Counted from the stretch's first letter, positions 1 to 17,500 are shown. The stretch is 64,000 nt of DNA from a virus (IMGVR_UViG_3300028844_006431:1-64000); one strand, 5' to 3'. The notes: generated by a model not told the origin, from the letters alone. Numbers and translations: made by a program.

Positions 1-234
1 GTGCGTTTGCGAGATGTTGATGTGGAAGTGATTGTTGTCCGAAGATTTACAAACTTTGTCACGGAAGAAAAAGTTGATCAATTAGGACAAGAACTAGTCG
101 CATGGGTTCAGAAGAATCAAGAGTATACAAATAATACTCGAGTAAAAGGACCTGTTCGTGTAGCAAGATTTGATCCAATGTGGACAATACCTTTTCTTCG
201 TAGAAATGAAATACATTTATTAGTAGATATTTAA
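1..234 (+). CDS. SOUL/HBP family heme-binding protein, C-terminal part (truncated by the window edge)
   Basis: VIVVRRF...ARFDPMWTIPFLRRNEIHL matches the SOUL C-terminal signature (YNPPWTLPFLRRNEV-like). Confidence 0.8.
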   Translation: MRLRDVDVEVIVVRRFTNFVTEEKVDQLGQELVAWVQKNQEYTNNTRVKGPVRVARFDPMWTIPFLRRNEIHLLVDI

Positions 235-633
235 ATGAAAGATCATAATCACATAGTGAAATATATTGATACTCCAGGTTATCGTGGAGATGACCGCAGA
301 AGACCAGAAAATTCTCCAAGAGTCCCGTGTATGGTTCCTGTTACTGTTGATGATGAATCGCCAGATAAGGAACCATATTATGGAAAGGTAATGAACATCG
401 GCCATGGAGGTTGTAAACTATTCACACATGAATTAGTGAATCAATCTGCTTTATTGAAAATTACCTTCTATTTGCAACGAGGTGAAGATTTTCATAAGTG
501 TACACCAATCACTGGTCGTGTAGTCCATGTACATGGAAAAGGATCAAATTATGTTGTGAATGTAGATTTTCGTGGTGCGATACACTATGAGCATGGTATT
601 CAAGAACTAATTGACATTAATTCAAAAAAATGA
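235..633 (+). CDS. Single-domain PilZ protein (variant motifs)
   Basis: DDRRRPENSPRVP and MNIGHGGC resemble the RxxxR and (D/N)xSxxG motifs; beta-rich remainder (ITGRVVHV...VVNVDF). Confidence 0.7.
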   Translation: MKDHNHIVKYIDTPGYRGDDRRRPENSPRVPCMVPVTVDDESPDKEPYYGKVMNIGHGGCKLFTHELVNQSALLKITFYLQRGEDFHKCTPITGRVVHVHGKGSNYVVNVDFRGAIHYEHGIQELIDINSKK

Positions 634-1037
634 AAACTAAACACAATCAAAGAAAAGAAGAACGCTTTCGAGTTTTACTTCCTGCTCGATTGACAGCAAC
701 TCATATTTCAGATTTAGTTCGTGTTGTAGATATCAGTATTATTGGTTGTCGATTCATGACAACCAAAAATTTAAATCTTCAAGCATCTACAACATTACAT
801 TTTTATCGAACTGATGAAATAATTGACCCTAAAACAGATGAGATTAGAGTTCAACATCATCCATGTAATGATATTTCTTGCCGTGTAGTTCGTAAATTTA
901 AATCACAACAAGAAGGCACAAATGTTTTTGGTGTTGAATTTATGGGTGTGGTCTTACCAGAACATTGTATAACTCAAATCATTGGTGAACTCGAAGTAGT
1001 TCGTAAAGATAATCGAGCAGCCTCTATAAAAAAATGA
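630..1037 (+). CDS. Single-domain PilZ protein (canonical c-di-GMP motifs)
   Basis: QRKEER (RxxxR), DISIIG (DxSxxG), CRVVR and FGVEF; ATGA overlap with both neighbours. Confidence 0.8.
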   Translation: MKTKHNQRKEERFRVLLPARLTATHISDLVRVVDISIIGCRFMTTKNLNLQASTTLHFYRTDEIIDPKTDEIRVQHHPCNDISCRVVRKFKSQQEGTNVFGVEFMGVVLPEHCITQIIGELEVVRKDNRAASIKK

Positions 1038-3166
1038 AATCTATATTACTCTTTTTGTGTATGTTGTTGTTCACTACTTCAGCATACACAAAAGAGACAC
1101 TGACTATTACATCCCCACAGCAAACTAAAATAGACCTACCTACTCATGCTTCTTATTTCGAATCAAAAAATCGTTTTTGGGCTGGTCATACTTTTTCAAT
1201 TGCTGACCTTGAAAAAGCAGAATGGACGGATGAACTAAAATCTCAACGTTCATACTATAGTGGTTTTTGGATTCGTTTTGAAATTTATAATGATACAAGT
1301 TATGAATACTTTGGTGTTGGCCATGAGAATCTCGAAGAAGCATATGTATATGTTGTTCATCGAGATAATGTCGTAAAGCATACTTATATACATAAAGAGT
1401 TTACGATATTAGAATCATTGACTGGTTTGGACTTTTATGATAACATGAGAGTTCGAATACCTCAACAATCTTCTGTGACTGTTTATAGTTGGATTGAATC
1501 ATCTCCTTACAATCGCTGGTATGGCATCACACGACCTTATGAACAAATTTATCTTACAGAATGGAATGAACTTCAAAAAAATATTCTATTCACATTTGGT
1601 TCAAAGTTAATTTTTGTAATTTTCGCATGGACTTTTGCCTTATATTTTCTGATCACATTACTCATCAATTTTCGTCGATATAATTTCTATCTTTTCGCCA
1701 TCACAGTTTGTACTGCAAGTTTATATACCTTTGGTGAAATAGGTATTGGTTATTATATTCATGCGCCAAAATTATTTACAATTTCAAATCTTTACGCTAT
1801 TGTAGCTGCAACTGGTATATTAGCTTACAACCAGTTCGTTTACGCAATGATTCAAAGTGTGCACTTTTATCCTCTTCTCAAGAAAATTCAAACAGTTACA
1901 CAATCAATCACAGCATTTGCCTTGTTCGCAAATATTTTTCTTTTGTTTTCTTTTCCGACCGATTTTGAAAAAGACTTAATTCAATATCCTTTGCTCGAAG
2001 TTCCACTTGGTCCATCTTTTGTTCCACCATTATTGATTATTATTTTTTGGACAATTCAATTATTTCCACTGATTGCTTTTGCGTCTGTTTCGTCTTTTCG
2101 TGGTAAATCTTATTCAGTCTCACTCTTAGTGAGTATGGTCTTTTTATTATTCATACCTTTCAAATACATTTTGATTTTAAAATTCAATGTGCCATTTGAC
2201 TCCTTACCTAGTTCAGAGTTTTTATTAGGTGGTTTGATTTGTTTACTTGGTGTCACATCAACTCTAAAGATTCGTCAAACAGAAAGTGACCAATTTAGTA
2301 ATCTCGTTTCACTCAAAGAATCTTATGCTCGTTTTGTTCCAGAAGAACTTCATTTATTACTCAATAAGAAAACAATCACAGAAGTGAAACTTGGTGACCA
2401 AAAAGCATATGATATGAGTGTTCTTTTTACTGATATAAGAAACTTCACAACAATCAGTGAAAAAATGTCACCAGAAGAAAACTTTAAGTTCATCAATGAT
2501 TTCTTAGATCATATGACACCAATCGTGAAAGAGAATAATGGTTTTGTGAATAAGTTCATTGGTGATTCAATCATGGCTATTTTTCATATGTCAAATACAG
2601 ATGCTGTAGATGCTGCTATTGATATGATTCGCAAGCTTTCAATTTTCAACACTTATTTGATCAATCAAGACTATGATCCAATCAAGATTGGTATTGGTGT
2701 CAACTCAGGAAGATTGATGCTGGGCACTTTGGGAATTGAAGACCGAATGGAAGCATCTGTGATTGGAGATGCCGTCAATCTCGCTGCCCGTCTCGAAGCC
2801 ATGACCAAGTACTATAATGTGCCGGTGCTATTGTCTGGACATACGGTCCAGAAGCTCCCAGAGTCTCGCTACCGGCTCCGAATGATAGACCGAGTAGCAG
2901 TGAAAGGGAAACAAGAAAAAACCGATATTTTTCAGGTTTTAGATGTCTATACGGAAGAGATGGTCACAAGGAAGCAAAAACTGCTTCCTCTCTTTGACCG
3001 AGCATATGATACATTTCAATCAGAAGATTTTGTTCGTGCTGAACTTCTGTTTCGTGAAGTCTTAGAGGGCGACCCTTCGGATCACGTTGCGAAGATTTAT
3101 CTTCAACGATGTAGTGAGGAGGGTGAACACCTCTCAGCAGAAAGACGGATGATACATTTTATGTGA
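1034..3166 (+). CDS. Membrane-bound class III adenylate cyclase with signal peptide, 7TMR-DISM-like extracellular domain, about 7 TM helices and a TPR-like C-terminal tail
   Basis: Catalytic motifs VLFTDIRNFT, NKFIGDSIMA, IGIGVNSG and SVIGDAVNLAARLE; hydrophobic segments about aa 185-410; FWIRFEI in the N-terminal domain. Confidence 0.92.
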   Translation: MKSILLFLCMLLFTTSAYTKETLTITSPQQTKIDLPTHASYFESKNRFWAGHTFSIADLEKAEWTDELKSQRSYYSGFWIRFEIYNDTSYEYFGVGHENLEEAYVYVVHRDNVVKHTYIHKEFTILESLTGLDFYDNMRVRIPQQSSVTVYSWIESSPYNRWYGITRPYEQIYLTEWNELQKNILFTFGSKLIFVIFAWTFALYFLITLLINFRRYNFYLFAITVCTASLYTFGEIGIGYYIHAPKLFTISNLYAIVAATGILAYNQFVYAMIQSVHFYPLLKKIQTVTQSITAFALFANIFLLFSFPTDFEKDLIQYPLLEVPLGPSFVPPLLIIIFWTIQLFPLIAFASVSSFRGKSYSVSLLVSMVFLLFIPFKYILILKFNVPFDSLPSSEFLLGGLICLLGVTSTLKIRQTESDQFSNLVSLKESYARFVPEELHLLLNKKTITEVKLGDQKAYDMSVLFTDIRNFTTISEKMSPEENFKFINDFLDHMTPIVKENNGFVNKFIGDSIMAIFHMSNTDAVDAAIDMIRKLSIFNTYLINQDYDPIKIGIGVNSGRLMLGTLGIEDRMEASVIGDAVNLAARLEAMTKYYNVPVLLSGHTVQKLPESRYRLRMIDRVAVKGKQEKTDIFQVLDVYTEEMVTRKQKLLPLFDRAYDTFQSEDFVRAELLFREVLEGDPSDHVAKIYLQRCSEEGEHLSAERRMIHFM

Positions 3167-3168
3167 GA

Positions 3169-3666
3169 TTACCACTTGGTCCACCAAAATAATCTGTTTC
3201 CGATGGGAGTTTTTTCGTCTTCAATTTCCACTACTAGTGGCCACTTCATTCTCTCATCATTCGTTACCATTGCAATTTCGCAATATTCGTGATGTGCTGC
3301 ATCTTTGACTTCTCGATAAGATGCCTTCACATCAAAGGGAAAATGATTTTCGTAGATAACAATCCGTAGGTCATCATAGACAGTGATTTCTTTAAAATCA
3401 TAAATGTCTTTGTACAAAGCAATCACATCATCATAATATGTTTCTTTGAGTTCACAAATTGTATAAAGGGGGTAGCCGTATAAATCATTTTTGCTTGTGT
3501 AGAAAATCGGTAGTAAAACTCCTCCGCGGGTGATATAACGATTGATATCTACAAACTCTTGGTCATTACCAATGACGGTATCTGAATGTAATTCAGCTTG
3601 AGCAGGGATGGGCATGAAAAGAAAAGAGACAAGCACACACATAACAAGGATACGAATAAAAGACAT
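3169..3666 (-). CDS. Hypothetical exported protein
   Basis: Likely start MSFIR at 3666, preceded by AAGGAG; Sec-type signal peptide ending AQA. Confidence 0.65.
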   Translation of the reverse strand: MSFIRILVMCVLVSFLFMPIPAQAELHSDTVIGNDQEFVDINRYITRGGVLLPIFYTSKNDLYGYPLYTICELKETYYDDVIALYKDIYDFKEITVYDDLRIVIYENHFPFDVKASYREVKDAAHHEYCEIAMVTNDERMKWPLVVEIEDEKTPIGNRLFWWTKW

Positions 3667-3697
3667 GGGACTCCTTGTCGATAGGTTATAAAGATAG

Positions 3698-3715
3698 TAT
3701 TTAGTATGATAAATA
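3698..3715. promoter_or_regulatory. Back-to-back T4-type late promoter motifs: GATAAATA (+, 3708-3715) and CTAAATA (-, 3698-3704)
   Basis: Similar to the T4 gp55 consensus TATAAATA and located between divergent genes. Confidence 0.5.
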
Positions 3716-3762
3716 AAAGTAATCAATAATCATTTATAACGAACATATCTGGAAAAAAATTC

Positions 3763-5748
3763 ATGAGTTATTATATACAGCCACTTCTTTCGTCAAACAC
3801 CTTTGGCGAATTTATGAACAGAATTAACGATGTAATTGATGAATTCAATTTGGCAAATTCTGTATTTCAACCAAATGTCATGGTTCGATTTGATTCAAGC
3901 GGTTCGTTATCTGCGAATACAATTGATACGAGTGCTATAAGTTTTTCCGGTTATACAATCAATTCTATTCAACAAAACTTCTTTACAAATAATCATAACT
4001 CTCTTGCTACTTCAAAAGCAATTTATGATTTATTAACAGGAGGTACAGCTTTAAGATTAAAGTTAAAAGCAAATTCGATTAACTTTGGCGATGGATATGA
4101 ATTAGATCAGATACTCCAAGTATCAGATATGCTTCAGTCAAGATTTACATATAATTATAATAAACCAATCACAGCAAATGCTGTGTTCGAAATTTTAGAT
4201 GGAGTACGACATCCACATAATTCTTATGCTATAAGTCCAAAATACATAGCACTTCCTAGTTCTGATGGCCAAATCTATCGGTTCAAACACAATTTTTCAG
4301 ATGTATCACATTCAGTGATTGTAAGTGCTAAAGCAATCAAGGATTGGTTATCAGGTTCAGGTTCACCTTTAGATTTGAAATTGGGTTCACTTGACTTTCG
4401 TGAACCAGGTAGTAATAAAGTTATTCGTATTGCCAATAATTTTGTTACACACAATGATGATGAGACTCTTATTACAGCCAAAGGTATCTATGAGTTAGTT
4501 GGTGGAGCAGATAAAGACATACGAACTCTTGAAGGAACTTCTCTCCGAATCAAAACTCATCTAATTGATTCAATACGAGATGATTTCACTTTAATTCAAA
4601 GTAATACACTACCTTCTACACTTGCTGTTCAAAACTATCTTGAAAGTGGAAATTATGATTTAGAAATTCAAGCAAATAATATTTTCTTGAATTATGAGAT
4701 CACAGCAAATACTGGAAATATCAATAAAGATTTATTTGTTGGTAATACAATCAATGTTGCAAATAGTCTGACAGTTCCTTATCTTTCTTCAAAAGAATTT
4801 TTCCTTTCAAACACAGCCAATCTTTTTGAAATCACAATCAATGCGATTTCAAGAGATATTCTTAGTTTAGATGACCACACTCTCGCAACTACAAATGCAA
4901 TTCATAAGTTCTTGGGTTCAGGAAATGTAGAATCGATTAGCGCAAATACATTGTTCACTCTTGCTGGTTATTCAGTCAATGCGATTACACGCATGATTGA
5001 TGCTGCAAATACAAACAATACAACAATTGCGACAACAGGCGCCATCTATGATTTGCTTACAGGTGCTGTTGTTAGTGTTCCTCCTCTACCCATTTCCGCA
5101 AATACATTTTCATTTCCTGGTGCGGGTCCTGGTGGTAATGTTGTTGTCAATTCAATCGCAACTGATTTCACAACAATCAATGATACTACATTAGTTACAG
5201 CAAATGCTGTTTACAATCTTCTTACTGATAATTCTTTATCTGCTCGACTAAACTCACTCAGTATTCAGGGTGGTCAAGTTGTTACGGATATTACAACACT
5301 TATAACACCAGCAACTACCAATCATAACACACTTGCTACTACTGAAGCAATCAAATTCTTAGTTGATAATAATCTATCTTCAGGTTCTGCTGTAATTTCT
5401 GCTGATGAAATTGCAGCAAATGATATTGAGGTAAAAAATCTGTTTACAAGAGTTATTGAAACAGGCGGAACAATCACGGGAGAATCACTCGGTCAGCAAT
5501 CATTCTCTGATTATACAGACCTTGGATATGTAGCTGGGCCTTATGTTTATTCTTCTGCTATTGAAGCATATGAAGAAAAGGATTTGAATAGTTCGGTAAT
5601 CTTACTTGGGGAGGGAGGAACTTCTGGAACAGGAGCATCAGATCAACAAGGTGAAGCACGAACAATCAAAATTATTGCCGGTGGAACAAATCTTACAGTA
5701 AACTCTCTTGGTGTGTTTATCAATGGCGCACCAGTTGTCACTTCCTAA
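3763..5748 (+). CDS. Virion structural, fibre-like protein with internal repeats
   Basis: N-terminal SNTFGEFMNRIN resembles the TF..W...N start of T4-like fibre/neck proteins; about ten repeats of (L/I)AT..AI..LL; late promoter motif upstream. Confidence 0.6.
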   Translation: MSYYIQPLLSSNTFGEFMNRINDVIDEFNLANSVFQPNVMVRFDSSGSLSANTIDTSAISFSGYTINSIQQNFFTNNHNSLATSKAIYDLLTGGTALRLKLKANSINFGDGYELDQILQVSDMLQSRFTYNYNKPITANAVFEILDGVRHPHNSYAISPKYIALPSSDGQIYRFKHNFSDVSHSVIVSAKAIKDWLSGSGSPLDLKLGSLDFREPGSNKVIRIANNFVTHNDDETLITAKGIYELVGGADKDIRTLEGTSLRIKTHLIDSIRDDFTLIQSNTLPSTLAVQNYLESGNYDLEIQANNIFLNYEITANTGNINKDLFVGNTINVANSLTVPYLSSKEFFLSNTANLFEITINAISRDILSLDDHTLATTNAIHKFLGSGNVESISANTLFTLAGYSVNAITRMIDAANTNNTTIATTGAIYDLLTGAVVSVPPLPISANTFSFPGAGPGGNVVVNSIATDFTTINDTTLVTANAVYNLLTDNSLSARLNSLSIQGGQVVTDITTLITPATTNHNTLATTEAIKFLVDNNLSSGSAVISADEIAANDIEVKNLFTRVIETGGTITGESLGQQSFSDYTDLGYVAGPYVYSSAIEAYEEKDLNSSVILLGEGGTSGTGASDQQGEARTIKIIAGGTNLTVNSLGVFINGAPVVTS

Positions 5749-5762
5749 TTTCCTCTAGACCT

Positions 5763-5791
5763 AAAAAAAGGCAAGCCTTTCGACTTGCCTT
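5763..5791 (-). terminator. Rho-independent terminator of the baseplate operon (possibly bidirectional)
   Basis: Minus strand AAGGCAAGTC-GAAA-GGCTTGCCTT followed by a T run, between convergent genes. Confidence 0.85.
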
Positions 5792-5828
5792 CTTCATTAA
5801 ACTTAAGAAAATCTCGTAAGTAGTTGAT

Positions 5829-8537
5829 TTAAAACTGGATTGAGATTTTAAGATCCTCTGTCTGATTTTGCGATCTTGACACCATTGAGCGATTCTCAAC
5901 ATACAAAATATGTCCAGAACCTGGCATCATACCTGGCTCTTCAGCAAGGTCATCAGCTAGTTTTGAGGTTCCCCAAATCGGTTCATTTTTAACGCTATGT
6001 TCAGTTATCGACTGAATCTTCAAAGGAGAACCATTTCCTTGGAGAACAGTGTAGAAATCTCCTCTTGGCTTAATTACACGAATCTTCTTATTGATGCGGT
6101 CATGGTCAACAAGTTTTGCTGTTGCGATGACGTCACCGTCAGCATACGCATATTGTGATCCATCAGGCTTCATTCGTGTAGCAGATAACCAAAGTGAATT
6201 ATCACCCAAAATAGTATGTGCATTATTCGCAATAAATTGAATATCCATGTCTGGCTCAAAATTGACGATATCAACACCTACGACGTCACTTTCGATAAAT
6301 GTATCTGTATCTAAGTTAAATCGATAGCATTGGTCAGTTTTATATCCTCTGAACAATTGTGAGTATTCAGAAGGCTCCATCCACAAAGTATTCAATGCGA
6401 TTCTGGCATCTGGATCAGTATATCCACCAACATAAGAAGCAGCATTTGTATAACCCAAAGGATTTTTCAGAATACCAATCTTTCGGAATTCGTTACCTAC
6501 TGTGAACTCATCAGATTCAGTTCCTTCAAAACGAGCGTTAATCATAACGTTGAATCCACCAAGTTCTCCAACTGGATCAAATCCGTGTCCACCAACAGGA
6601 GGAATTGAAGCAAATAATTTAGGCTTTGACATTATTCTTGTTGCGTCTACTCCAGCATTGATACCTACATCATCTAAGACACCGGCACATACTTGATAAG
6701 TTGAATACGCAGGATCAAGCGCCAAAAACGTTGTTCCATCTGTTGTAGATGCATCATCAAGTTCTGCGATATTAGCAGCCAACTCACAGCTATCAATACG
6801 ATAATGATAGCGTCCTGGATTCAACACACGAACGTCTATAACTCTTCCGAGAGCGGCAGTTTGATAAGCTTTTTCAGGATTTGAATCCGCAATTTCTTGA
6901 CCAGAAAAGAATGGTTCGCAAATCGCAATTGCTTCAAAAGAATCAACAGTATCAGCTATGGTTGAAGATTGATGATTTGCTTTTACAATTACTTTAGGAT
7001 GAATTTCAATTGTGAGTCCAGTTTGTGAAGCAGTATCAAGTAATGGATCAATACCTTTTTTCTTTGAAAGTGCCTGATCATAATGAGATTCTCCTACATA
7101 TTTTTCATAAACAGCCGTATCACACTTCAATTCGAGTTTTAGTCCATTCCAAGCTACATCTGTGATTTCCCAAGCAATTGATCCATAACGGTCTTGCATA
7201 TATTCGTCAGCAAGATTATTTGGCAAACCTTCACGAATCCAAACTGAATATCCTCTCATAATCAAACCGAGAGCAGTGGCAGCATCGCCACCAGCTGAGT
7301 CAAATATTCTCTGAAGATACCCTAATTTTGTATTATCATTCGTACCAGGATCACCAATTTCAAATTGATTTTTATTACAGGCAGTGTTCACATAACTGAC
7401 TGCTACGTTAGCATCTGGCCAATGACATCCTACTTTGTCATCCACAAGGTCATTCACTGTAAATTTCACAAATTCCGTTCCTGCGGTATGATCCAAATCC
7501 ATTTGAACATTCTCAAATGCCACCTGAAAGAATCCACATCCACCACCAGTAATTTCATATCCAAGAACAGTTCCATCTGACTTTTCTACAGGTGCTTTAT
7601 CTACAAGCACATTCATAATCGCACCCGGACGAGCATTCTCTTCCATGTAATATTGATCTGTATAATCAATTGGTCGTTCACCATTTTCTTTACGAACGGT
7701 TCGAACAGGAATATAAGAAGTTGTTACAAATTTGAGTGCTTCACCGGCATCAATTGTATAATAATATTTCCATTGATAGCCATCGTTAAATTCATTACCG
7801 ATTGTCATAAAATCTTCAGACAATCCAGACTCTGTAATTGTAGTTTGCGGTTCTCGGAAAGAATTATGATTCCAAACATAAAGGTTGTCATCAGAATCTT
7901 TATAGGTACCATCCGCAGGAGTTACTGATGACAAATCCATTGTTGCGGGATCATGAGCATACAGTTGAAAACGACCAATTCCTTGCTTCAAACACTTATA
8001 AACACGGAATCTTTCGTTTACAGTATGAATTAGAATATCATCATCAAAAAGATTATCAGCACGGTCATCGTATCCATCATATCGCATACCGATTTTCCAG
8101 TTTCTTACACCTTCCTGGATTTCATCGGCACGTTCTCGTTTGATTACATGAGAAACTTCCTTTGCTGATACTTTTTTAGCAGCAATCATATCATCCCAGT
8201 GATTGAAATGAGAATCTTTCATACTATCAACAGGAAATGGTGGAGCGTTCTCATTAATATTTGGATTGGGAACACCGTCTGGGGTATCATAAGCATTCCA
8301 AGCTGATACACGACCAATAAACAAATACATTTGGTCGTCAAGAGCATAGAAAGGAATTTTGTTTCCGTCTCCGGCCGAAAGAGCAGCACCAAGCGAAGGT
8401 TCTCCAGTGGCAGGATCAACGTTCATATTCGCTAAAGGAATGTATCCACCTACACCATGTTCTGTTTTTTCCTCAAAGCTTTCTTTAAATTGCTTTGCGT
8501 TACTTACACGAAAAGTAGTATGCACTAATGCGGGCAT
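5829..8537 (-). CDS. gp8: Baseplate wedge subunit, T4 gp8-like, enlarged to 902 aa
   Basis: YLFIGR..W, MIAAKKV, RVYKCL, DGYQWKYYYTI, GGHGFDPVGELG, FRKIGILKNP and C-terminal GHILYVENR...QTEDLKI; downstream of gp6 and gp7. Confidence 0.88.
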   Translation of the reverse strand: MPALVHTTFRVSNAKQFKESFEEKTEHGVGGYIPLANMNVDPATGEPSLGAALSAGDGNKIPFYALDDQMYLFIGRVSAWNAYDTPDGVPNPNINENAPPFPVDSMKDSHFNHWDDMIAAKKVSAKEVSHVIKRERADEIQEGVRNWKIGMRYDGYDDRADNLFDDDILIHTVNERFRVYKCLKQGIGRFQLYAHDPATMDLSSVTPADGTYKDSDDNLYVWNHNSFREPQTTITESGLSEDFMTIGNEFNDGYQWKYYYTIDAGEALKFVTTSYIPVRTVRKENGERPIDYTDQYYMEENARPGAIMNVLVDKAPVEKSDGTVLGYEITGGGCGFFQVAFENVQMDLDHTAGTEFVKFTVNDLVDDKVGCHWPDANVAVSYVNTACNKNQFEIGDPGTNDNTKLGYLQRIFDSAGGDAATALGLIMRGYSVWIREGLPNNLADEYMQDRYGSIAWEITDVAWNGLKLELKCDTAVYEKYVGESHYDQALSKKKGIDPLLDTASQTGLTIEIHPKVIVKANHQSSTIADTVDSFEAIAICEPFFSGQEIADSNPEKAYQTAALGRVIDVRVLNPGRYHYRIDSCELAANIAELDDASTTDGTTFLALDPAYSTYQVCAGVLDDVGINAGVDATRIMSKPKLFASIPPVGGHGFDPVGELGGFNVMINARFEGTESDEFTVGNEFRKIGILKNPLGYTNAASYVGGYTDPDARIALNTLWMEPSEYSQLFRGYKTDQCYRFNLDTDTFIESDVVGVDIVNFEPDMDIQFIANNAHTILGDNSLWLSATRMKPDGSQYAYADGDVIATAKLVDHDRINKKIRVIKPRGDFYTVLQGNGSPLKIQSITEHSVKNEPIWGTSKLADDLAEEPGMMPGSGHILYVENRSMVSRSQNQTEDLKISIQF

Positions 8538-8567
8538 CTTTTTTCTCCTTGAAAATTACTTTATAAA

Positions 8568-11500
8568 TTAAACAAAACACTCAGACTTTGTATTAGCATA
8601 CATCGGATAAGCAATTCCTCTAGAACTTTCCAAAAACTCTACTTCTTGGATGCTTGCTTCAAAATCTGTAACAAATGTATTTAGTTTAGAAGTTTCCCAT
8701 AAATAACCTTCCAACCTACCAGTTTTCATCTGTAAATTCGTGTTTGTAAATTTTCTCCAATCGTTTTTTAAACTCTTTGCTTTAAATCGTTTATTATTCA
8801 TCTTATATATATCAACGTCAAGATATGGTCCCAACATTGAAGAAATTAAGAAATCATCACCTAAAAGCATTGTAGTATTTATATTACTTATTTTACACTC
8901 AGAAATTTGAAAAGGAGATTCGACATTTTCTTCCAAATTCAAAGAAGTCATGATTGCGGTATTTGAATTTACACCCGATGTATATTCATATCCACCATCT
9001 TTATAATTTTTCTGACGGAACTTTTTAATTTCAAACATCTGTTCTGTCAAAGAATGAACCGATCCACCTTTCAAATGTGTTCGTATTGAATCAGTAATTT
9101 CAAAAGTATCCATTCGGTCTAAAATATATTCATTCAATACATTATGGTCAATTCTTTTTTCAGTATCAATCATACGATCGGCATTCTTTACTTGATTCAA
9201 AAATTCAAATACATATTCTTTCTCAGCAATTTCTCCTGAACCATCAACAAAGTTTGCTTCTTTTTCGAGTGTTGTTTGAACTTCTTTGAGTTTTGTTTTA
9301 AGAATATCCGATACTTTATCACCATCTTCATTCAATTCAAACTCATTATACATCGCAAATGTAAAGTGTGATGAGGCATCAACAGTGCGATTTGATTTCT
9401 TGACATCATAAGAAGTTTTCTTGACTAATTCACGATGAGTGATTGGTTGATCTAAAAACTCTTGTGTAATTTTTTCATGTAAGTTGATTACATTTTCTTC
9501 AACTTTTAAATCATCAATTTTGTTAAACTCAACAAAAGTTTCACCCGCATATATTCCAGAATCAATTAAATTTGTATGATGATTAAGCAATACAAACTCG
9601 GAAGCCTCAACAAATGGTGAAGCTAAAGGATTCATTACATGTGAATCATCGGAAAGGTCTCTTGGTATTGAAATTGCTTGTTGGCTTTCATAATTTGTTT
9701 TAACTGTTCTCGTAATTTCACCATATTCTTGAACAAGGCCAAATTTCAAATAGTCTTCAATGCGTTGAGTGTTGAATCCTATAATTAATTCATTACCACG
9801 GATAATAAATCGATCTGAAATATGATCTTTTTCTGTAAAGATTTGATTGAATTCACCATGAACTTCAGTTCCAGCTTCTAAGAAAGTTCCATTTGGTAAG
9901 TATAAAGTTGTATCAATTGAATAATAAGGTTGAATATTTTGCTGAGGTATAATTGTTTGCGGACTATCATCAACATACTTAGACGCCGCATCTTTATAAT
10001 GAGAATAAAACTGTGGATTGTATGTAATTTCAAACATACTTTTGGCGCCTACCGAAGGTATATGCTCACGATTATTCACCGCTATTTTTGCAAGTAAATA
10101 ATCTCCAATCTGATGATCAATAATATCAGTTCCATATATTCTACCATCAAGAGAAATATATTGATTGCGGTCAAAGATATTCACATCACCATAAATCAAA
10201 GTTCTTGGTAAAGGAATATCTGAAGTAGCATCAAGAACAGTTGTATTGGCAAAATATAATGTAGTATCAATTGAATAGAAAGGTTGTATATCTTTAAATG
10301 CTAAAGCATCTTCATGCTCATCAACATACTTATCTTTAGCATCGTAGTAGTGGGCATATAACTGAGGCTTATAGGTAATTTCAGGTTCATTTTTAGCAGA
10401 GACAGAGGGAATTGCTTCACCTCCCCACTCTGTAATTGGTAAACCAAACATATCCCCAGATATAGGATAATCAAGTCGATTATTTTTGATCTTATCACTC
10501 AGAGCAAAAACTTTCCAACTATCATAAATGTTGACATCTTCAATCACTTTTACAGCAGCATCCCAAGACTGAACAGTTTGTTCAAAGAAGGTTGTATTTC
10601 CATCATTCCAAATCATTTCTGGCATATAATAATCTTGTATATCACGATTATGATAATTATCAAAATTTTCATCTACATATTTACTCTTTGAATCTGTGTA
10701 ATTATAATATAGTTGAGGTTTATAATCAATTTCAACTTGAGGTAGAACTCTCACTCCAGGTAAAGTATCGGTCGCCCAATCTCTCAAAACCATACTCCAC
10801 ATACCACCGGTCAACTGACGGTCAAGTAATTGAAAATCAATAATGTCAGCCAAACCAAAGTTACGATGTGAATCAAGAATTTTATTTTCTTTTTCAATGT
10901 TAGTTCTTATATAAACTTCTTTTGAAGATGTAGCATCTAAGAAAGTTGTATTGGGAAAATAAACAATTGTGTCTTGTATATAATAATCTTTTACATCAAA
11001 AGAAAAGTTGGTTCCTTCAAAATTTTCATCAACATATTGATCTTCAACATTCTTACCATAATGCCAGTATAATTGAGGTGAATATTCAAATTCAGTTTGT
11101 GGGTGACATTGAACAGAAGGTATAGTATCACCTCCCCAGTCTCTCAAACGAATTGCTATTTTCATAAACTCTTTGATATTTCTTTTCAACCAGCGATGAT
11201 TGAAAATATCAAATAAAGCAAATGATGTATTTTTATTTACAACGTCGACAACACCTTCTAATTGATCAACTTTATAAACTTCTCTTGAAGCCGAGCCATC
11301 TAAGAAAGTTGTATTTGGGAAATATATAATTTGATCAGCATTATATACAGGTAGTTGATATCCTTTTAAGTTTTCAGCTTCTTCATTTATTTGAGCATTT
11401 ATTTCAATTTCAGTTTGAGGAATTACAAGGGCTCCTGGTAAACCATCTTTAGTATATTCAACAAGTCTTTGTGGAATAAATGCGTTTCGAATCAAATCAT

Positions 11501-14500
11501 TAAGTAAATCATATTCAACAAAATCATCAAGCATGAAAAGTAAATTACGATTTGGTATCGCAAGTTTAGTTTTTACATCAAAAACACTTTCAGTGAAAAC
11601 AGGAGTTGCGTCTAAGAAAGTTGTATTAGGGAAATAGATCGTAGTTGTAGTTTCATATCCAAAATCTACAACATAATTATTTGCTGTGAAAATTTTAGGT
11701 TGAGAAAGAACTGAAACGCTCGGTATTTTATCACCAAAGTAATCCGTAAACTTACTGTTGAACCAATCATAAATTCTTGTTCTTATCCAGGGCGCAATGA
11801 TATCTGTTGTTTGAAAATAAGGATTACGGTCTTCAACATGGAAATGTTCAATCGTATAATTATAAATGTCATCATTAATTGTACCATCAATAAAGTTTGT
11901 ATTTCCTTCCAATCCTGTTTCAACATATTCAACCATTGGAATTTTCTTTTCCATTGGTGCCAAATAAATTGTCGGTTCATGAAAAGCAGAAACTGAAGGT
12001 ATTGTATCTCCAAGCCAAGACTTGCTTCGTGCTTTCAACCAGGGATCAAATACCTTGTTAGTCCAGTCTGTATATTCATTACGAATTTGTTTATCATAAT
12101 CAAAATATAACCAACGATTTCCAATATGCTTTTCAAGGTCATAATCTAATACTGTTTTTATATTATTTGCTGTATCTGTTTTATGTTTTTCATAAGAAAA
12201 GACAGGATCAAGTCCACCACTAATCAAAGTACTTTTGATTTTTATATTTTCTCTTTTGAGTTCATTATCCCAGTGAAACCAATTTTCAAGAAGAGGCATT
12301 TCAATTTTAGCCATGAAATTTGTTTTATCCCAAAAAGTAAGTCCTTTATGTGGATAAAAATATCCTCGGTCAAAAGCATATTCTTTACTATCAAATACAA
12401 ATGGAGTATCACCAAATAAAGGTAAAGGTGGTCTTTCACCATAAGCAAATACATGACTCAATAGTTTTCTGTCAAAAATAAATTCATCTGGCATCCATAT
12501 TGTTGCATCAACAGGCATTTCAAATTCACGTTCTTGTTCAACTACCCAATAACTTGAAGATGATCCATCAAGATTACTTAACTCAACCATAAATTCTTGA
12601 CGATTATATAAATCATATTGACTATAATCAAATGTATAATTTCTTTGGTAAGTAGCAACAGCATTCTGAACATTCATATTGTCAGCAGCAAAATAAATAT
12701 TTGTTTCAATGTTTGGATCAACTACCAACTCACCTAAAACATAAAAATCCTTTTCATCAAAAACAGCATTGAGTTTAAAATCATCTACATTTGTAATGTT
12801 AATAAAATCTACTTTGATTGCTACTTCAAGTTCACCCGGCTGATAATAAATTGTATCTAAATCAAAGAAGGAATGATTTTCATCAAACTTGGCATATATT
12901 GAGTTAAAGCCATAGGGAAACATTAATTTACCATGATGACCACTTCTTTGAAATGCGTTGATTTTGGTATCTAAAATTAAGATACCATCACGATTTCTTG
13001 GATCATTCAAAGCATCAGGATCCATTGCTAATGGATTGATGTTTATTCTTTCGTCTAATGGATAATGTTCAATTCTTCTTGTTTCAACAAAAGAAGTTAC
13101 TTCAGGTAATTCATAATGGCTAATGTTATAAAGATTTACCTTTGAATATGTAATGGGTCTGCCATTGATATCTGTTTTTTCATTTGCTTTTATCCATGTC
13201 TCAAAAGATAATAGAGATACTTTATTGCGGTCAAATTGTTCAAATCCAAGAATTGTAACATTGGCACTTTCAGCTTCGTGAACAAGTACACTATAATTTC
13301 TTTGCCAATCATGAAATAAATGTTGGTCGGTGTTTATAATTGAAGCACTCACATTTGCTTGATTATATTGAACATTTTCAATTACAATTTTTTGAATTGG
13401 CCGATTATGATTATTTGCATCCAATTCAAAATAATTTTTTGACAGATCAAGGGTGAGTTGAGATTCTGGCACACCCTTTACATGTACAGGAGCGCATTTG
13501 AAACTTTCATCAATATCAACAGTGGAAAATTGAAAGGACTCAAATCCTAAGTTTGAGAAATATGTGTTGGTTGTATTGGAGTAATGAAAGATTTCTCTTC
13601 CATAATCAACAGTTATTTCTCGATCTTGTAAGAGTGAAATGTTAACGTCAGGGCGGGCAAGAATAACATGTTCAAGTGACGGGGACATTGTTTTGGGCAA
13701 GGCCACTATCGATGGCACCAGGCCGTAGGGAACCCCGGTGGCGCTCTTCTGGTCTCTTATCAAAAAAAAAATTTCGGTCGCTGCCACCTCCGGATAAGGA
13801 TTGCGAATTCTATGATAATGGTCTTGAGAATAGTTTAATGAATCAGTATCAAGAGTGGTTGTAGTCAATGTATAATTTGATTCATTTGCTGTATTCCCAT
13901 GAAGAGCCAATCCTTCTGGATTTTGATAATCAAAAACAATTGGCTCCAAATGAACGGGCAATATAAAATTTTGATTATATTCAAGATTAACTGAAAAGTT
14001 TTCTTCACTTACTCGTTTACTTTCATCAATGTATATTTCCGGTAAAGTATAACTGTTATCAATAATATAGTGTAATTCAAGTTCATCCATATCAACTTCA
14101 GTAGCCTTTGTCGGCATCTTAGCAAAGCCTTCAAAGTTATTAATCATCACACAAAATAAAGGTCCTGAATATCTACTTTTGATTATCTTTACAGTATTTT
14201 TGAGTGGAACTTTACCTGCGATGGGACTTTTACCAGCTTCAACTATTTTATCATCTACAATTGCTATACCATCAGGAGTTCTTGAAATATTGATGTCACT
14301 TGATTTTTTCTTATATAAAAGGTCATGTGTATCACTTAAAGCTAGTTCTTGATCTGAGATCACCGTAATTGAAAAGGTTGAACCATCAGTATATGTGTAG
14401 ATATTTCCCTCAAAATGAGTTGAATAGACTTCAGAAGGTTCTGTATATTTTACAATACCATCGGATCGCACTTCAGCAACTTTGACACCATACTCTAAAT

Positions 14501-17500
14501 TTTGAAATTGAACCCAGCCGTTTTCTGTTAGAATTTCAGCATCAGGTAAATAAGCACCTTGTTTTGACAGTGAGTTACCAGTTACAACTGGCATGAAAGC
14601 GGTTTGTCTGGCAAAACTAAATCCAATATTTCCACTATCTAAAGTTAAGTCTGAAGAACTAAAATCAGCGGCTGAGGTGAAAATTGATTGTGAGAAATCA
14701 GCCAATGAATTTGCCATTTGAATATCATCTGAATCAAATGTAGCACCTATTGTATTCGCAGATGTAATTGGTGATAAAAATGGATCTCTCGCAATGATCA
14801 TACCACCAATGTTTGTTCCTGTAATATATGTTTTGAGGTCATCAATCCAAACACGATGTTGGTGTATTGTCTTACCTGCCATTGTTTCAATTGGACCAGA
14901 ACGTGTTCCAATTGTTTGTGAGATCCAGTTTGCTTTGTCTTCTACATTAATCAGTTTTGTCCAAGATTGTGTTGCCATCAATAGGTCATAGACAGCACTA
15001 TTGGTTGAAATATGAGGCTCTGTTAAGTCACTCATATAATCATCAAATTCTTCATCAAGACTACGATGTGTATTCGCAATTAGAACTTGCTCTTCAGATA
15101 CAGTTCTCTGAACAATTGAGCGCCTTGAATTATTACCTATTCTTGTACCTAATCCTACATCACGATTATCGAATTTCCAAGGTCTACGATTATTTGACCA
15201 ATACGGGGGTATTACAGTATCATCAATAAAATACTTGAAAGCTTGATAGATATCAGCTATACCATCAACATCAATTTCAGTATATTCCTTTGCTTTGACA
15301 ACTTCATACTGCATTAGATTGGTTTCAATTTCATTCTGTAATATTTGATTAATAGTGAGTTCTCCAAATCTTTCCCATTCTTGTTCCATATGAGGATAAA
15401 TTACAGAATGGCAGTAGCCTTGTGATTCAATTTCAATCTCAGGCATTTCAAAATTCATAAATCGAAGCCTAAATTCAGAATCAAAACGATTGCGAATGAA
15501 AGCTAAGAAACCTGCTGGATGAAGTTCGTCAAGAAGAAGCGGTTCGATTGCTGTTGCTGGTATTTTTGTAATGATTTCATAAGAATACCATTGATAATAA
15601 TAATTGTCAAAGAAATACTTATCAGAAGATAGCATACTTTGATTGTTACGATATTCTTCATAAGGACGGTGATGAACGTCAAACACAGGTTCAACTTCAA
15701 ACGTCAAACCATGTTGGCAACGAAGATAGTTTGGTTCTTTTAGTGGATTACTAAAATTCTTACTTTCGGGCGCATTGAAAAAGAAAGGTGTTAAGTTTCG
15801 TCCCTTTTGAAGAGCCGGCTCTAAGACCTCAAGACCTGCTACACCATCACCTAAATGTGCCGTGATTTTTGCGGTATCACTGAGAGGTTGTACATTTACT
15901 AAGTCTACAATTTTACAGGTACGGACAGCCCCACCAGTATCTGTAAAAGTAAACATCGCATCATTTTCTAAATCGGCCATTGACCTTTGAGAAGCGAACC
16001 TTTTAGCAATATGATCTTCTGATAAAAGACCTGGAAGTAGAATCATACTATTTGTAACAGTCACATCACCAATATAATAAGCATCATTGTTTAGATTTGT
16101 TCCAGCACCAGATAATTCAATTGTTGTGTTTGTAACAATGAAATCATTATTCGCATCACTATCATCTAATAACAAATCAAAGACAAGCATTGTCTGAGCT
16201 TCTTTAATTGATGAATTTACATAAGCTGGTGGTGCAAATTTATAATCAAGTCCAGAATCTTCAAATGTGATCTCTTGAATCTGTCCAACTTCATAAGCTG
16301 GGAACATTGAAGCAGGAAGAATTTGATTAAGTGTAGAATCTTTAGCAGGTTGTGCAGCATTGTGAAATAAAGGATCATCTAATTTTACATGAGCAAATTT
16401 TGATAACTCATGATTTTTTATTTTATTGAATTGACTATTGAAAAAAGTTGTCAGAGATGGATCTTTATAGATTGCTGAAACATGTGCTTTAGCAAATTTT
16501 GTCGCTCCAGTAAAATCATTTTCAAAAACGACTTCATCTCCAACTGCATAACAAATACCAGGATCTTCAATCGTCATCTTAGTGACTGAATATTCTTCAA
16601 GTTTTGTAACTCTTGCCCGCCCATCAGCAAATCTGAATTCATCACCAACTTCATGTCCGATACCACCATCAGCTATTTTTAAATCAGTAACTGAAGTGTC
16701 GATGAATACTTCGGTTACTTTTATTCCCGTTGTCATATCAAATATATCGACTTTTTCACCAGCAATAAATTTTCCATTCAAATACACAAGGTCCATGTAC
16801 ATGCTGATTATACCATTATTTGAAGCCGAAATAATTTTACGACATATTGCTGATGCTTTTGATGATGTACCGTATATTCTTTTTTGGGAAAGTTGAGATG
16901 GTGTGTCGTGGTTTTCAATCGCAACTAAATTTTCACGATAATAACCACTATCAGATAATTTTAAAATGTCAACTTTGGGAAAATATAAGTCAATTGGCTC
17001 ATCAAAGAATATTCGAAAAAACCAATAATATGAATTTTCTGTTCCTCTTTTTTTGTAATAGTCAAGAATTTTTTTCGTAAGAGTTTTAGGATCTAGTTTA
17101 CGAAAAATACTATGGTCTAAAGAAACATTTTTATGAAAATATTTTTTGAAAAGAGTAAGAGTGGTTTGATAAACTGAATTTTCTTCAATGTCTGCAATGT
17201 ATTGATAGATATTTTTATACAGAGAACGTATAAAATATATTTCACCTGAAGTACCATTTACAATTACTTCATCTTTATAGAATTGATTATCTTTAGTTAA
17301 GTAATCAAAATAAACTCGATCTGGTGTAACTGTTTTTACAACTCCCTTTGCTTTTGAAAGAGAACCATAGATAAAATCACCCTCTTGAACATTCTTTATT
17401 TGGTCAAGAACCAAAACTGATGATTCAAGAAAGTTATAATATTCTCGGACAAACTCGGCAAATTGTGGGTATTGCTCGAGAAAGTAACCAGGCAGTTGGC

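Follow-up and report, generated by a model that had tools for sequence, protein, structure and literature searches.

The left end of an uncultured virus genome raises two questions: whether a cluster of genes resembling second-messenger proteins belongs to a T4-like phage at all, and what such genes could do to an infected host. The record (IMG/VR, IMGVR_UViG_3300028844_006431) is 84,110 bases long and rated 38% complete; bases 1–64000 were analyzed and are referred to here as the window. The cluster sits at the extreme left end of the record, the window beginning at base 1, and comprises four open reading frames on the plus strand, the first of which is open at the first base of the contig (Table 1). 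An earlier reading made from the DNA alone (the sequence-only reading) had described these as translationally coupled genes for a SOUL protein, two PilZ proteins and a receptor adenylate cyclase. The coupling is as described: the SOUL and PilZ1 genes abut, with TAA followed directly by ATG, and the PilZ1/PilZ2 and PilZ2/cyclase junctions are ATGA overlaps. An SD-like motif was found at none of the three starts, and the context at all three was AAAAAA-ATG-AAA or similar. The profile searches proposed at that time returned the expected families, namely SOUL (E 2e-9), PilZ for both small proteins (E 4.6e-7 and 30.5 bits for PilZ1, E 5.8e-7 and 30.2 bits for PilZ2, against a cut-off of 22.5) and Guanylate_cyc for the cyclase (E 3.7e-22, 79.2 bits, cut-off 21.9).

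Table 1. Features of the cassette and its right-hand neighbors, in window coordinates.
Feature	Position	Strand	Basis or remark
SOUL, C-terminal 77 residues	1..234	+	Pfam PF04832
PilZ1, 132 aa, stand-alone, degenerate ligand motifs	235..633	+	PF07238
PilZ2, 135 aa, stand-alone, canonical c-di-GMP motifs	630..1037	+	PF07238
Receptor-type class III nucleotide cyclase, 710 aa	1034..3166	+	PF00211
Cyclase beta-sandwich sensor, predicted extracytoplasmic, aa 23–176	1100..1561	+	AF2, Foldseek
Cyclase seven TM helices and signalling helix, aa 177–429	1562..2320	+	AF2, hydropathy, hhalign
Cyclase catalytic domain, aa 457–629	2402..2920	+	Pfam, alignment to OaPAC
Cyclase C-terminal helical TPR-like tail, aa 640–710	2951..3163	+	Weak TPR-type Pfam in relatives
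Small secreted protein, convergent ORF	3169..3726	-	Accompanies the module in two lineages
Fibre-like virion protein (context)	3763..5748	+	Homologues at gp8 loci
T4 gp8-type baseplate wedge protein (phage anchor)	5829..8537	-	PF09215, E 1e-8

Phage origin and extent of the cassette

The cassette lies immediately upstream of a tail-fibre gene and baseplate wedge genes, in agreement with the earlier claim that it adjoins T4-like virion genes. The markers recognized were gp8, a gp6-like domain, a baseplate wedge protein and a gp5 OB domain; the gp8 gene gave tblastn matches to cyanophage baseplate wedge genes, and the record also encodes a gp43-type DNA polymerase (PHROG E 1.7e-259) that is 41% identical to cyanomyovirus polymerases. 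The fibre-like protein had no significant Pfam match, and at 10 of 13 gp8 loci a homologue separates gp8 from the module or from other cargo. Relatives without the module have conserved genes on the flanks of the fibre gene, and these genes were absent from the 84 kb. The convergent ORF that precedes the fibre gene, for which no Pfam, PHROG, PADLOC or NCBIfam match was obtained, has homologues accompanying the module in L097 (53% identity) and L104 (71% identity), and other ORFs take its place in the L003 lineage.

The block could in principle be cellular DNA, introduced through a chimeric assembly, as the host flank of a provirus or as a misjoined bacterial island. It forms the terminal part of the record, and each of the six IMG/VR contigs with the module breaks off within it or a short way to its left. 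Two records begin at the same base within SOUL, the RCC1 genes further left have a higher GC content (0.41–0.45), and an archaeal MAG is given as the source of one PilZ2 relative. The left side was linked back to phage core genes on none of the contigs examined. The right-hand junction argues against a cellular source, however, since the connection to the fibre gene and gp8 was seen in five independent IMG/VR contigs and in two metagenome contigs, and a 7,663-nt contig from a public run, one not flagged as a possible source of the record, covers window positions 549–8211 with 0 differences, which bears on the chimeric join that the earlier reading had wished to exclude. Pieces covering the PilZ genes, cyclase, fibre and gp8 were also recovered from a viral-fraction metagenome, 19 of 23 at 99% or above, with contig depths of 3–5 for those listed. 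At least half of the sampled words occurred in 17 runs from seven studies, four of these runs being possible sources. The composition is indistinguishable from that of the phage, as had been noted before: the GC content of the block is 0.351 versus 0.344 for the rest of the window, and in tetranucleotide make-up it is closer to the rest than are 51 of 58 other equal-size windows. Finally, a scan of 185,579 species genomes, which sees only relatives sharing its six 8-residue words, matched nothing beyond the catalytic domain, with identities no higher than 48%, and we know of no T4-like phage that integrates. A cellular source is regarded as extremely improbable, and the block is phage DNA and not a chimera.

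The block is also conserved. The order cyclase, fibre, gp8 recurs in five of 13 gp8-anchored IMG/VR loci, the outcome of the synteny search that the sequence-only reading had recommended, and PilZ2, PilZ1 and SOUL are also present in L102 and L104, the latter keeping the ATGA overlaps at 70–80% protein identity. The dN/dS ratio was 0.13–0.35 across every gene of the block (0.14–0.21 for the cyclase, 0.22–0.31 for PilZ1 and 0.35 for PilZ2), which speaks for functional genes. The block is a real accessory cassette of an uncultured marine T4-like myovirus lineage. In one metatranscriptome run, contigs were present at 475–689, 1125–1335, 1919–2086 and 3506–3656, a weak hint of expression that may reflect DNA carry-over, the run having been found using the same stretch.

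The SOUL fragment aligns to profile positions 104–172 of 173, so only the C-terminal third of the protein is present; it is the end of the contig that interrupts the gene, which is not itself truncated. Full-length homologues have 242 residues (L007, L006) or 251 residues (L104), and the L007 protein matches PF04832 over positions 1–172 (E 3.5e-34). The full-length homologues carry a signal peptide followed by a Cys, so SOUL is predicted to be exported and not cytoplasmic, and membership of the family makes it a putative heme or tetrapyrrole binder. A public-run contig reaches 1043 nt further left than the window, and on related contigs a full SOUL gene and RCC1-repeat exported proteins lie to the left of the block, as had been suspected from the window. 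The order of these genes strongly indicates that the full cassette would consist of one or more RCC1-repeat exported proteins, exported SOUL, PilZ1, PilZ2 and the membrane receptor cyclase.

The receptor cyclase: catalysis, sensing and known relatives

Class III cyclases use two metal-binding Asp residues together with a transition-state Asn and Arg. Alignment of the phage protein to OaPAC and other adenylyl cyclases identified the catalytic residues as D467, K507, D511, S575, N582 and R586, and these six columns were invariant or nearly so (K507 invariant) in a 14-row family alignment that included 32%-identical relatives. The two Asp residues, N582 and R586 all occur within one chain, which is the homodimer type, and from these residues the cyclase looks catalytically intact. 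Its full-length relatives form 14 clusters at 67–96% identity. The C-terminal tail aligns with the tail of the Melnitz cyclase up to residue 693, and weak TPR-type Pfam matches were present in two relatives (P0016 and P0272).

The best solved relatives were the adenylyl cyclases OaPAC, bPAC, CyaB and CyaC, with E values down to 8.5e-24, and the best 15 of 42 solved relatives at E<=1e-5 were all adenylyl cyclases; no solved cytidylyl or uridylyl cyclase was present among the 42. The second purine-specifying position, at which Asp or Thr is usual in class III adenylyl cyclases (Thr in OaPAC), is occupied by S575. The Lys507/Ser575 pair points to ATP, and the enzyme would be adenine-directed with cAMP as the most likely product; because Ser575 replaces the usual Asp or Thr, this specificity is one that we infer. 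The same serine is a point in favor of a different product, either cGMP or a pyrimidine cyclic nucleotide, which might serve, for example, as a decoy or trigger for a host Pycsar-type system. The cyclase shares the class III-type fold with Pycsar PycC proteins, and 12 PycC models matched it, the best with E 3e-20 and 70.6 bits. That score is nevertheless lower than the 79 bits for Guanylate_cyc, and, unlike Pycsar cyclases, the phage protein retains the adenine-type Lys and has adenylyl cyclases as its nearest solved relatives, and its gene is phage-borne and not in a defence island. There is also no adjacent cNMP-binding effector, and neither cNMP-binding (PF00027) nor GGDEF genes were found in the 84-kb record, which represents 38% of the genome. 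A product other than cAMP is considered very unlikely.

Residues 1–21 form a signal peptide or first helix ahead of the sensor domain. In the AF2 model (pLDDT 70), the beta-sandwich is followed by seven helices (residues 177–211, 214–234, 246–276, 280–306, 332–355, 359–384 and 393–429), and the membrane helices were also examined by hydropathy scan. The earlier description of an adenylate cyclase equipped with a receptor was upheld in that the catalytic residues are complete and predicted to be adenine-directed, and the predicted extracytoplasmic sensor and seven TM helices are complete as well. The more specific label of 7TMR-DISM fared less well. The Pfam model 7TMR-DISMED2 (PF07696) reached E 0.033 and 14.6 bits, below the cut-off of 22, and PF07695 (7TMR-DISM_7TM) gave no match on the window cyclase. 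Because the direct profile match falls below the cut-off, the label draws on weaker lines. Foldseek aligned the sensor with the RetS sensor domain 2xbz_A (prob 1.0, TM 0.54 on target, rmsd 5.4, E 0.017), hhalign against 7TMR-DISM cyclases gave a probability of 75%, and a 32%-identical relative, P0015, matched PF07695 with E 0.006. The N-terminal profile, in addition, reached two SpoIIE proteins with PF07695, P0300 (E 4.8e-7, 30.3 bits, passing the cut-off) and P0290 (E 8e-4). The sensor is probably a divergent 7TMR-DISM, a weakly supported assignment, and belongs to a very small family with 34 representatives at E<=1e-3 among 1.84 billion.

In its predicted architecture the protein resembles bacterial 7TMR-DISM receptors such as Leptospiraceae cyclases and RetS, with a signal peptide, beta-sandwich, seven TM helices, signalling helix and cytoplasmic output, and its catalytic domain is 42–47% identical to bacterial cyclases bearing both PF07696 and PF07695. 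It differs from them in failing to reach the cut-off of either DISM Pfam model, and in that no full-length relative was found in the species genomes scanned, within the six-word limit of that scan.

The sequence-only reading knew of no such module in a T4-like phage. Receptor cyclases have been described in two cultured marine T4-like phages, Pelagibacter phage HTVC008M and Methylophilales phage Melnitz (PMC9599517), which makes the idea only partly new; the novelty here lies in the 7TM sensor and in having PilZ and SOUL proteins as partners. In HTVC008M and Melnitz a CHASE2-cyclase closes a CsgF-CsgG-curlin-FecR cassette beside baseplate or tail genes. The likeness extends to the marine T4-like myovirus background, a membrane receptor class III cyclase (theirs being 611–683 aa) with a helical C-terminal tail, and the position of the cyclase as the last gene in a same-strand cassette of exported envelope proteins abutting baseplate or tail genes. 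The sensors differ, being CHASE2 in those phages (E 9e-39 and 8e-41) and a beta-sandwich with seven TM helices here, and so do the partners, which here are RCC1, SOUL and two PilZ proteins. Among the genes left of the cyclase nothing matched curli or FecR, and the cyclase itself had no CHASE2 match. The catalytic domains are 26–35% identical and lie on very long separate branches, from which it follows that the cyclases were acquired independently.

The PilZ pair and a model for host second-messenger control

The motifs that define c-di-GMP-binding PilZ domains are RxxxR and (D/N)xSxxG. PilZ2 carries both, as R8-K-E-E-R12 and D34-I-S36-I-I-G39, and they were present in 12/12 PilZ2 sequences. 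The AF2 model of PilZ2 (pLDDT 85.7) is a six-to-seven-strand barrel with a C-terminal helix, and all 13 Foldseek matches in the PDB at E<=0.001 were PilZ domains, most of them solved with c-di-GMP and including VCA0042, BcsA, MotI, Alg44, YcgR and MapZ. Motifs and model together strongly indicate a canonical c-di-GMP receptor domain. In PilZ1, Glu or Gln is aligned to the first Arg of the RxxxR motif of PilZ2, the spacing is RRRxxxxxR, and the Ser position of the second motif is G, A, S or C in four sequences. PilZ1 appears from these alignments to be a paralogue of PilZ2 with a degraded binding site, lacking the c-di-GMP ligand motifs. The proposal that the PilZ proteins are c-di-GMP receptors thus stands for PilZ2 and not for PilZ1. 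PilZ2 shares its motifs, barrel and C-terminal helix with MapZ, PA4608-type and YcgR/MotI PilZ domains; unlike stand-alone PilZ adaptors, it is phage-encoded, paired with a degenerate paralogue, and its gene overlaps that of a cyclase. No PilZ or SOUL relatives were found in 50,697 phage records (by tblastn for PilZ2), and no sequence relatives of PilZ2 in the PDB, NCBIfam or PHROGs.

The relationship between PilZ2 and the cyclase was approached through gene order and divergence. The ATGA overlap between the two genes is kept in every lineage seen, and this conserved coupling is the only computed tie between them, so the claim of one sensor-to-messenger circuit was not sustained. A narrow HMM of the phage family detected no PilZ relative beside the 80 cellular cyclases closest to this one, and there is therefore no independent cellular precedent for the pair. 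The dS values were 0–0.23 for SOUL-PilZ1 and about 1–1.4 for PilZ2-cyclase, and the histories of these two pairs therefore differ; the four genes may represent two sub-modules rather than one circuit.

Separate histories would also suit a counter-defence role, in which PilZ2, perhaps with PilZ1, acts as a sponge for c-di-GMP or a related cyclic dinucleotide of a CBASS/STING-type system, the cyclase having a separate function within a shared operon. PilZ2 is a small (135 aa), stand-alone protein with a confidently predicted PilZ fold and fully kept motifs, and bacterial STING effectors use c-di-GMP. Phage cyclic-nucleotide sponges are an established class (Acb2, Acb4, Tad1/2), and in the portions of published work surveyed PilZ is not among the sponge families. 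This role is judged unlikely: PilZ2 is locked to the cyclase by the ATGA overlap in every lineage seen, and with PADLOC models there was neither a PADLOC match nor a match to any known sponge family.

We think it rather likely that the cassette resets two host second-messenger outputs, one through the cyclase and one through PilZ2. The cyclase would enter the host inner membrane during infection, its catalytic domain driven by the extracytoplasmic beta-sandwich and seven-helix membrane module, and would raise cAMP on a periplasmic or envelope cue. As no cNMP-binding protein is encoded in the 84 kb, the cAMP is proposed to act on CRP-type receptors of the host. The ATGA coupling could set a fixed PilZ2:cyclase ratio. 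PilZ2 would read or titrate host c-di-GMP and, with PilZ1, might relay the c-di-GMP state, the recipient being either the cyclase or a host target, for instance a pilus or flagellar motor. The net outcome would be that the phage resets outputs governing host surface structures, motility and carbon use. The host, the ligand and the PilZ-cyclase link are parts of this model that we infer.

A downstream elaboration is surface remodelling or superinfection exclusion, with PilZ1 and PilZ2 directly engaging the type IV pilus or the flagellar machinery of the host and cAMP altering pilus or receptor expression, such that other phages could not adsorb or the attachment of the infected cell would change. 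The adjoining exported RCC1 and SOUL proteins are consistent with this, as is the presence of two motility brakes (YcgR, MotI) and a chemotaxis adaptor (MapZ) among the structural relatives of PilZ2. The position and logic of the cassette also resemble those of the curli-secretion and cyclase cassettes of HTVC008M and Melnitz (PMC9599517), and phage proteins reported to act through PilB or PilZ to disable type IV pili have been published (PMC11461919, PMC13436744). The cassette is, however, without a pilus or flagellar gene, and naming a target requires the host. As it extends the preferred reading and is not an exclusive alternative, we treat exclusion as an unlikely account in its own right.

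A bolder version of the preferred reading, control of two second-messenger outputs, is a cross-talk device in which c-di-GMP-loaded PilZ2, with PilZ1 as a ligand-blind partner, docks on the 7TM cyclase. This is put forward tentatively and is unlikely; to our knowledge, a PilZ-gated adenylate cyclase is not known from any organism, and literature searches gave none. If it were correct, cAMP output would respond to two inputs, an envelope or extracellular cue and the sessile-or-motile state of the host, which would let the phage sense what condition its host is in and adjust the infection programme to it. Close relatives of the cyclase and PilZ2 were also observed on one 346-kb contig.

The SOUL-PilZ-PilZ-cyclase block and its phage setting

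Open reading frame and Pfam analyses upheld the four-gene SOUL-PilZ-PilZ-cyclase block that the sequence-only reading had placed beside T4-like virion genes. At the SOUL/PilZ1 junction the ATG was found immediately after the TAA, and the PilZ1/PilZ2 and PilZ2/cyclase junctions were both ATGA overlaps. To the right of the block lay a small convergent ORF, a fibre-like gene and then the genes for gp8, a wedge protein, a gp6-like protein and gp5, with a gp43-type polymerase further right that shared ~41% identity with those of cyanomyoviruses. The phage belongs to the marine T4-like myoviruses, among which it branches deeply, and has no close relative in culture; the IMG/VR source record comprises 84,110 bases with a completeness rating of 38%. 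Searched against NCBIfam, eight cassette proteins gave no match other than one to GGDEF on the cyclase, a cross-match below threshold.

Features of the cassette in the window and, in left-to-right order, in the related metagenome contig L007
Feature	Locus	Position	Strand	Observation
SOUL, C-terminal end	window	1-234	+	PF04832 E 2e-9, profile positions 104-172 of 173 only (Pfam)
PilZ1	window	235-633	+	Pfam PilZ E 4.6e-7
PilZ2	window	630-1037	+	Pfam PilZ E 5.8e-7
Class III cyclase	window	1034-3166	+	Pfam catalytic domain E 3.7e-22
Convergent ORF	window	3169-3726	-	internal start, then signal-peptide-like stretch; no family match
RCC1-repeat protein	L007		same strand	at least 628 aa
Four small Arg/Glu-rich ORFs	L007	1897-2945		between two RCC1-repeat genes
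RCC1-repeat protein	L007			488 aa; signal peptide then Cys
SOUL	L007			242 aa; like leader (signal peptide then Cys); PF04832 E 3.5e-34
PilZ1	L007
Lys/Glu-rich ORF	L007	5650-6273		207 aa
PilZ2	L007
Cyclase	L007

The convergent ORF was kept beside the cyclase in the gp8-anchored loci L097 (53%) and L104 (71%), and was replaced in the lineage of the related locus L003 by ORFs of 174 and 118 aa.

Several independent lines of evidence indicate that the block is phage DNA. The loci compared were four IMG/VR contigs retrieved through the cyclase and 13 retrieved through gp8. The cyclase occupied the same site in five of the 13 gp8 loci (L097, L101, L102, L104 and L106), with PilZ2, PilZ1 and SOUL also present in L102 and L104 and both ATGA overlaps kept in L104. 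The whole block was absent from six gp8 loci with a full 10-kb flank (L098, L099, L100, L105, L107 and L108; site at ~15,300-19,000 of each locus), and L096 and L103 were too short for a call of presence or absence. Two metagenome contigs, L006 and L007, continued through the block into fibre genes. Public-run contigs were compared over window 1-12000, and the stretch 3166-3763, where a chimeric join was to be excluded, proved continuous, a single contig of 7,663 nt covering 549-8211 with 0 differences; another held window 1-3171 together with 1043 nt further left. Pieces from a viral-fraction metagenome lay over the PilZ genes, cyclase, fibre and gp8 (19 of 23 at ≥ 99% identity; contig depths of 3-5 for the pieces listed). 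In 17 public runs from seven studies, half or more of the sampled words were present; four of these runs may be the source, and the labelled ones among the 17 were marine or aquatic metagenomes. The composition was also like that of the rest of the phage, as had been claimed, with a GC content of 0.351 vs 0.344 in the rest of the window and a tetranucleotide distance from the remaining sequence below that of 51 of 58 other windows of equal size. Finally, dN/dS was 0.13-0.35 across all block genes, indicative of purifying selection.

That the block is cellular DNA was judged very improbable. The module-bearing IMG/VR contigs all ended inside or near the block, and none among the contigs examined reached the left-side phage core genes. 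One long contig, of 346 kb, encoded proteins related to the cyclase and to PilZ2. Its cyclase was 89% identical to that of locus L002, which adjoins phage fibre and gp8 genes, a finding that suggests that the 346-kb contig comes from the same group of phages. The protein P0262, 93% identical to PilZ2, carries the NCBI source name Candidatus Poseidoniales archaeon MAG and lies on a contig of ~4 kb, which is most likely phage sequence that was assigned to the archaeal bin.

A weak hint of cassette transcription came from one metatranscriptome run, in which contigs mapped to 475-689, 1125-1335, 1919-2086 and 3506-3656, the run having been found with the same stretch and DNA carry-over being possible; there was no RNA cover over 3657-10700, which says nothing on relative expression. 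Promoter and terminator scans found no more than chance would give (24 vs 24.4 expected), and the T4 late-promoter word occurred three times vs 5.5 expected. No tRNA genes were found in the window, and the Shine-Dalgarno-like motif seen before 10 of 39 ORFs was not informative on the host.

The membrane cyclase and the two PilZ proteins

Marine T4-like phages are major killers of bacteria and known carriers of genes that rewire host metabolism. The reading that we favour, and consider reasonably probable, is that this phage would equip the host membrane with an adenylate cyclase gated by a ligand while co-producing a c-di-GMP receptor (PilZ2) with a ligand-blind paralogue (PilZ1), and that two host messengers would thereby come under phage hold. 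The signalling circuit proposed earlier is supported in part: its gene content, catalytic and ligand motifs, folds, conservation and phage linkage are shown, whereas the cyclase product, the ligand, the targets and a PilZ-cyclase contact are those parts of it that we infer.

The best solved relatives of the catalytic domain were the adenylyl cyclases OaPAC, bPAC, CyaB and CyaC, with E-values down to 8.5e-24. Alignment with OaPAC placed D467 and D511, which we take from the class III literature to be the metal Asp residues, together with K507 and S575 (Thr in OaPAC), presumably the purine-specifying pair, and N582 and R586, presumably the transition-state residues. These six catalytic positions were conserved across the 14 rows of a family alignment, in which relatives with only 21-22% N-terminal identity were included. 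Pycsar cyclase models also matched the window cyclase (E 3e-20), a match to be expected because any class III domain would give one, and production of another cyclic nucleotide was regarded as quite improbable. Since the relatives are adenylyl cyclases, no pyrimidine cyclase was present among the 42 solved matches and no cNMP-binding gene was found in the 84 kb, the predicted product is most likely cAMP.

The phage clade fell inside an unresolved polytomy in the cyclase-domain tree, and viral scans with three distant full-length relatives (P0015, P0272 and P0276) returned nothing new. P0015, which has the same layout at 32% identity, represents 420 members clustered at 90% identity, a Tara Oceans gene among them, and one word-based IMG/VR scan found no viral contig with it. 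No PilZ was found beside 80 cellular cyclase loci using a narrow PilZ HMM, which makes for a weak negative.

An AF2 model of cyclase residues 1-430 (pLDDT 70) began with a leader helix, which was followed by a beta-sandwich (23-176) and a set of seven long helices (177-429). The 7TMR-DISM label given to this sensor by the sequence-only reading fell below threshold in Pfam itself (7TMR-DISMED2, E 0.033), but several further weak lines make a divergent 7TMR-DISM the probable origin. The sandwich matched the RetS sensor domain in Foldseek (probability 1.0, TM 0.54 on the target, E 0.017), hhalign gave 75% probability against 7TMR-DISM cyclases, and PF07695 was found at E 0.006 in P0015. A profile search of 1.84 billion representatives returned just 34 proteins at E ≤ 1e-3, and these included two SpoIIE phosphatases with PF07695, one of them above the cut-off; the sensor family is small. 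The top Foldseek matches, WLS and TMEM87A, had the sandwich-plus-7TM layout in common at a low TM-score (0.29), and a VIA wide search gave GPCR- or rhodopsin-like bundles at Z ~14, near noise for helical bundles. A scan of 185,579 species genomes yielded catalytic-domain matches only, at ≤ 48% identity, and the absence of the family there is weak evidence because the six exact words used by the scan are missing in most diverged members.

PilZ1 and PilZ2 were found to be paralogues of ~25% identity with a C-terminal E-H-G/C-I motif common to both. In PilZ2 the RxxxR (R8..R12) and DxSxxG (D34..G39) motifs were present in 12 of 12 sequences, and the model (pLDDT 85.7) was a barrel plus C-terminal helix. 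All 13 PDB structures matched by this model at E ≤ 0.001 were PilZ domains, the majority solved with c-di-GMP; a search by sequence found no PDB match, and the ESM Atlas held generic PilZ clusters only. PilZ1 has Glu or Gln at the first Arg position and G, A, S or C at the Ser position (four sequences); it is probably ligand-blind. A PilZ2 that binds c-di-GMP could also act as a sponge against a cyclic-dinucleotide defence, an alternative that we consider unlikely, and the same low weight was given to a direct effect of the PilZ proteins on the pili or flagella of the host, serving exclusion or attachment.

Comparison with known phage cyclases

Among phage isolates, cyclase-domain genes were detected in nine records from four organism groups (Pelagibacter phage HTVC008M, Methylophilales phage Melnitz, Acinetobacter phage MD-2021a and one Ruminococcus phage), in each case through the catalytic part only and at 26-35% identity. 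In HTVC008M and Melnitz, a CHASE2-cyclase is the last gene of a same-strand cassette with CsgF, CsgG, curlin repeats and FecR, which abuts tail and baseplate genes. PMC9599517 assigns this cyclase a putative role in regulating the curli secretion encoded by the phage. The window cassette is like those of HTVC008M and Melnitz in cassette logic and kind of genomic position, but differs in its sensor, its partners and its independently acquired catalytic domain. To our knowledge, the function of the pelagiphage receptor-type adenylate cyclases has never been tested.

When 50,697 phage records were searched by tblastn, the PilZ and SOUL proteins had no match, nor do they have a PHROG, and full-text literature searches for phage-borne PilZ, at the level of listings and abstracts, returned nothing relevant. 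The cassette represents a second, independent phage capture of a receptor-type cyclase, with a different sensor, and the cyclase adjoins predicted PilZ-type c-di-GMP receptors that are the first to be seen in the phage collections searched. Should the parts function as predicted from sequence, a lytic phage would draw on cAMP and c-di-GMP, the two main lifestyle messengers of bacteria, from one operon. This is a clean, conserved case of a lytic phage with a predicted cAMP source and c-di-GMP receptor domains, tempered by the published phage receptor cyclases. Being compact, under purifying selection and present in 17 runs from seven studies, the cassette offers a practical test case for phage control of host signalling.

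Leftward extent and mosaic history of the cassette

The suspicion that the block runs left of the window was confirmed by same-strand RCC1-repeat and full SOUL genes in L007 and in L104, the order in L104 being RCC1, SOUL (251 aa), PilZ1, PilZ2 and cyclase. Given these full-length genes, the SOUL piece in the window is a gene cut by the contig end. SOUL relatives of ≤ 39% identity belonged to a number of proteobacterial and bdellovibrio-like sources. When the L007 SOUL protein and the two RCC1 proteins were used in viral scans, nothing beyond the known contig and an RCC1 relative of 27% identity was returned; these scans need exact 8-residue words, and L104 was missed despite its full SOUL gene.

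The four Arg/Glu-rich ORFs of L007 had repeated E-R-R motifs, a hydrophobic helix at the end of two of the four and no Pfam match. The Lys/Glu-rich ORF between PilZ1 and PilZ2 was also present in L003 (774-1397, 207 aa), with a counterpart of 85 aa in L006 (1877-2134); it was absent from the window and L104 and had no family match. In the related locus L008 (1-3152), a PilZ1 homologue, 59% identical, came after an RCC1-like ORF and was followed by Lys/Glu/Asn-rich ORFs and then, by eye, a TAXI-type solute-binding protein; a SOUL gene was absent and there was no cyclase within 2.3 kb. The partner of PilZ1 may be the RCC1 genes rather than the cyclase.

When the window was compared with the L003/L007 lineage, the SOUL end (dS 0) and PilZ1 (dS 0.23) were nearly identical, whereas PilZ2 (dS ~1) and the cyclase (dS ~1.4) were saturated, a contrast that points to a recent swap of the left sub-module between phage lineages. 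With L007 as comparison, the mosaic boundary was sharp, separating window 1-633 from 630-3166. Between the same lineages gp8 was 45% identical vs 72% for the cyclase, and the block was wholly absent from gp8 lineages equally distant. The dS mosaic, the gp8-cyclase difference and the patchy presence together indicate that the cassette or its parts are mobile between related phages.

Base 1 of the window and base 1 of a second, separate IMG/VR record (L003/L102) coincided inside SOUL, with one difference in the first 243 aligned columns. The shared start base is not a DNA end, since public-run contigs extended beyond it to the left, by 52 nt and 1043 nt. The shared tract reached a depth of 29.7 in one run, twice the 14.4 of its neighbour, as is expected where two co-occurring lineages collapse in an assembly graph. 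A break of the assembly graph in a tract common to co-occurring lineages is the probable cause of the shared start, and movement of the cassette between phages probably led to the coincident record starts.

The fibre-flanking genes of the module-less relatives were also compared with the 84 kb, and one partial match at 36% was the only one found. In L098, L100 and L108, the gp8 loci whose genes were compared at this site, a conserved gene run of about 86-89, 462-468, 134-136 and 264 aa was located upstream of the fibre gene instead of the cassette.
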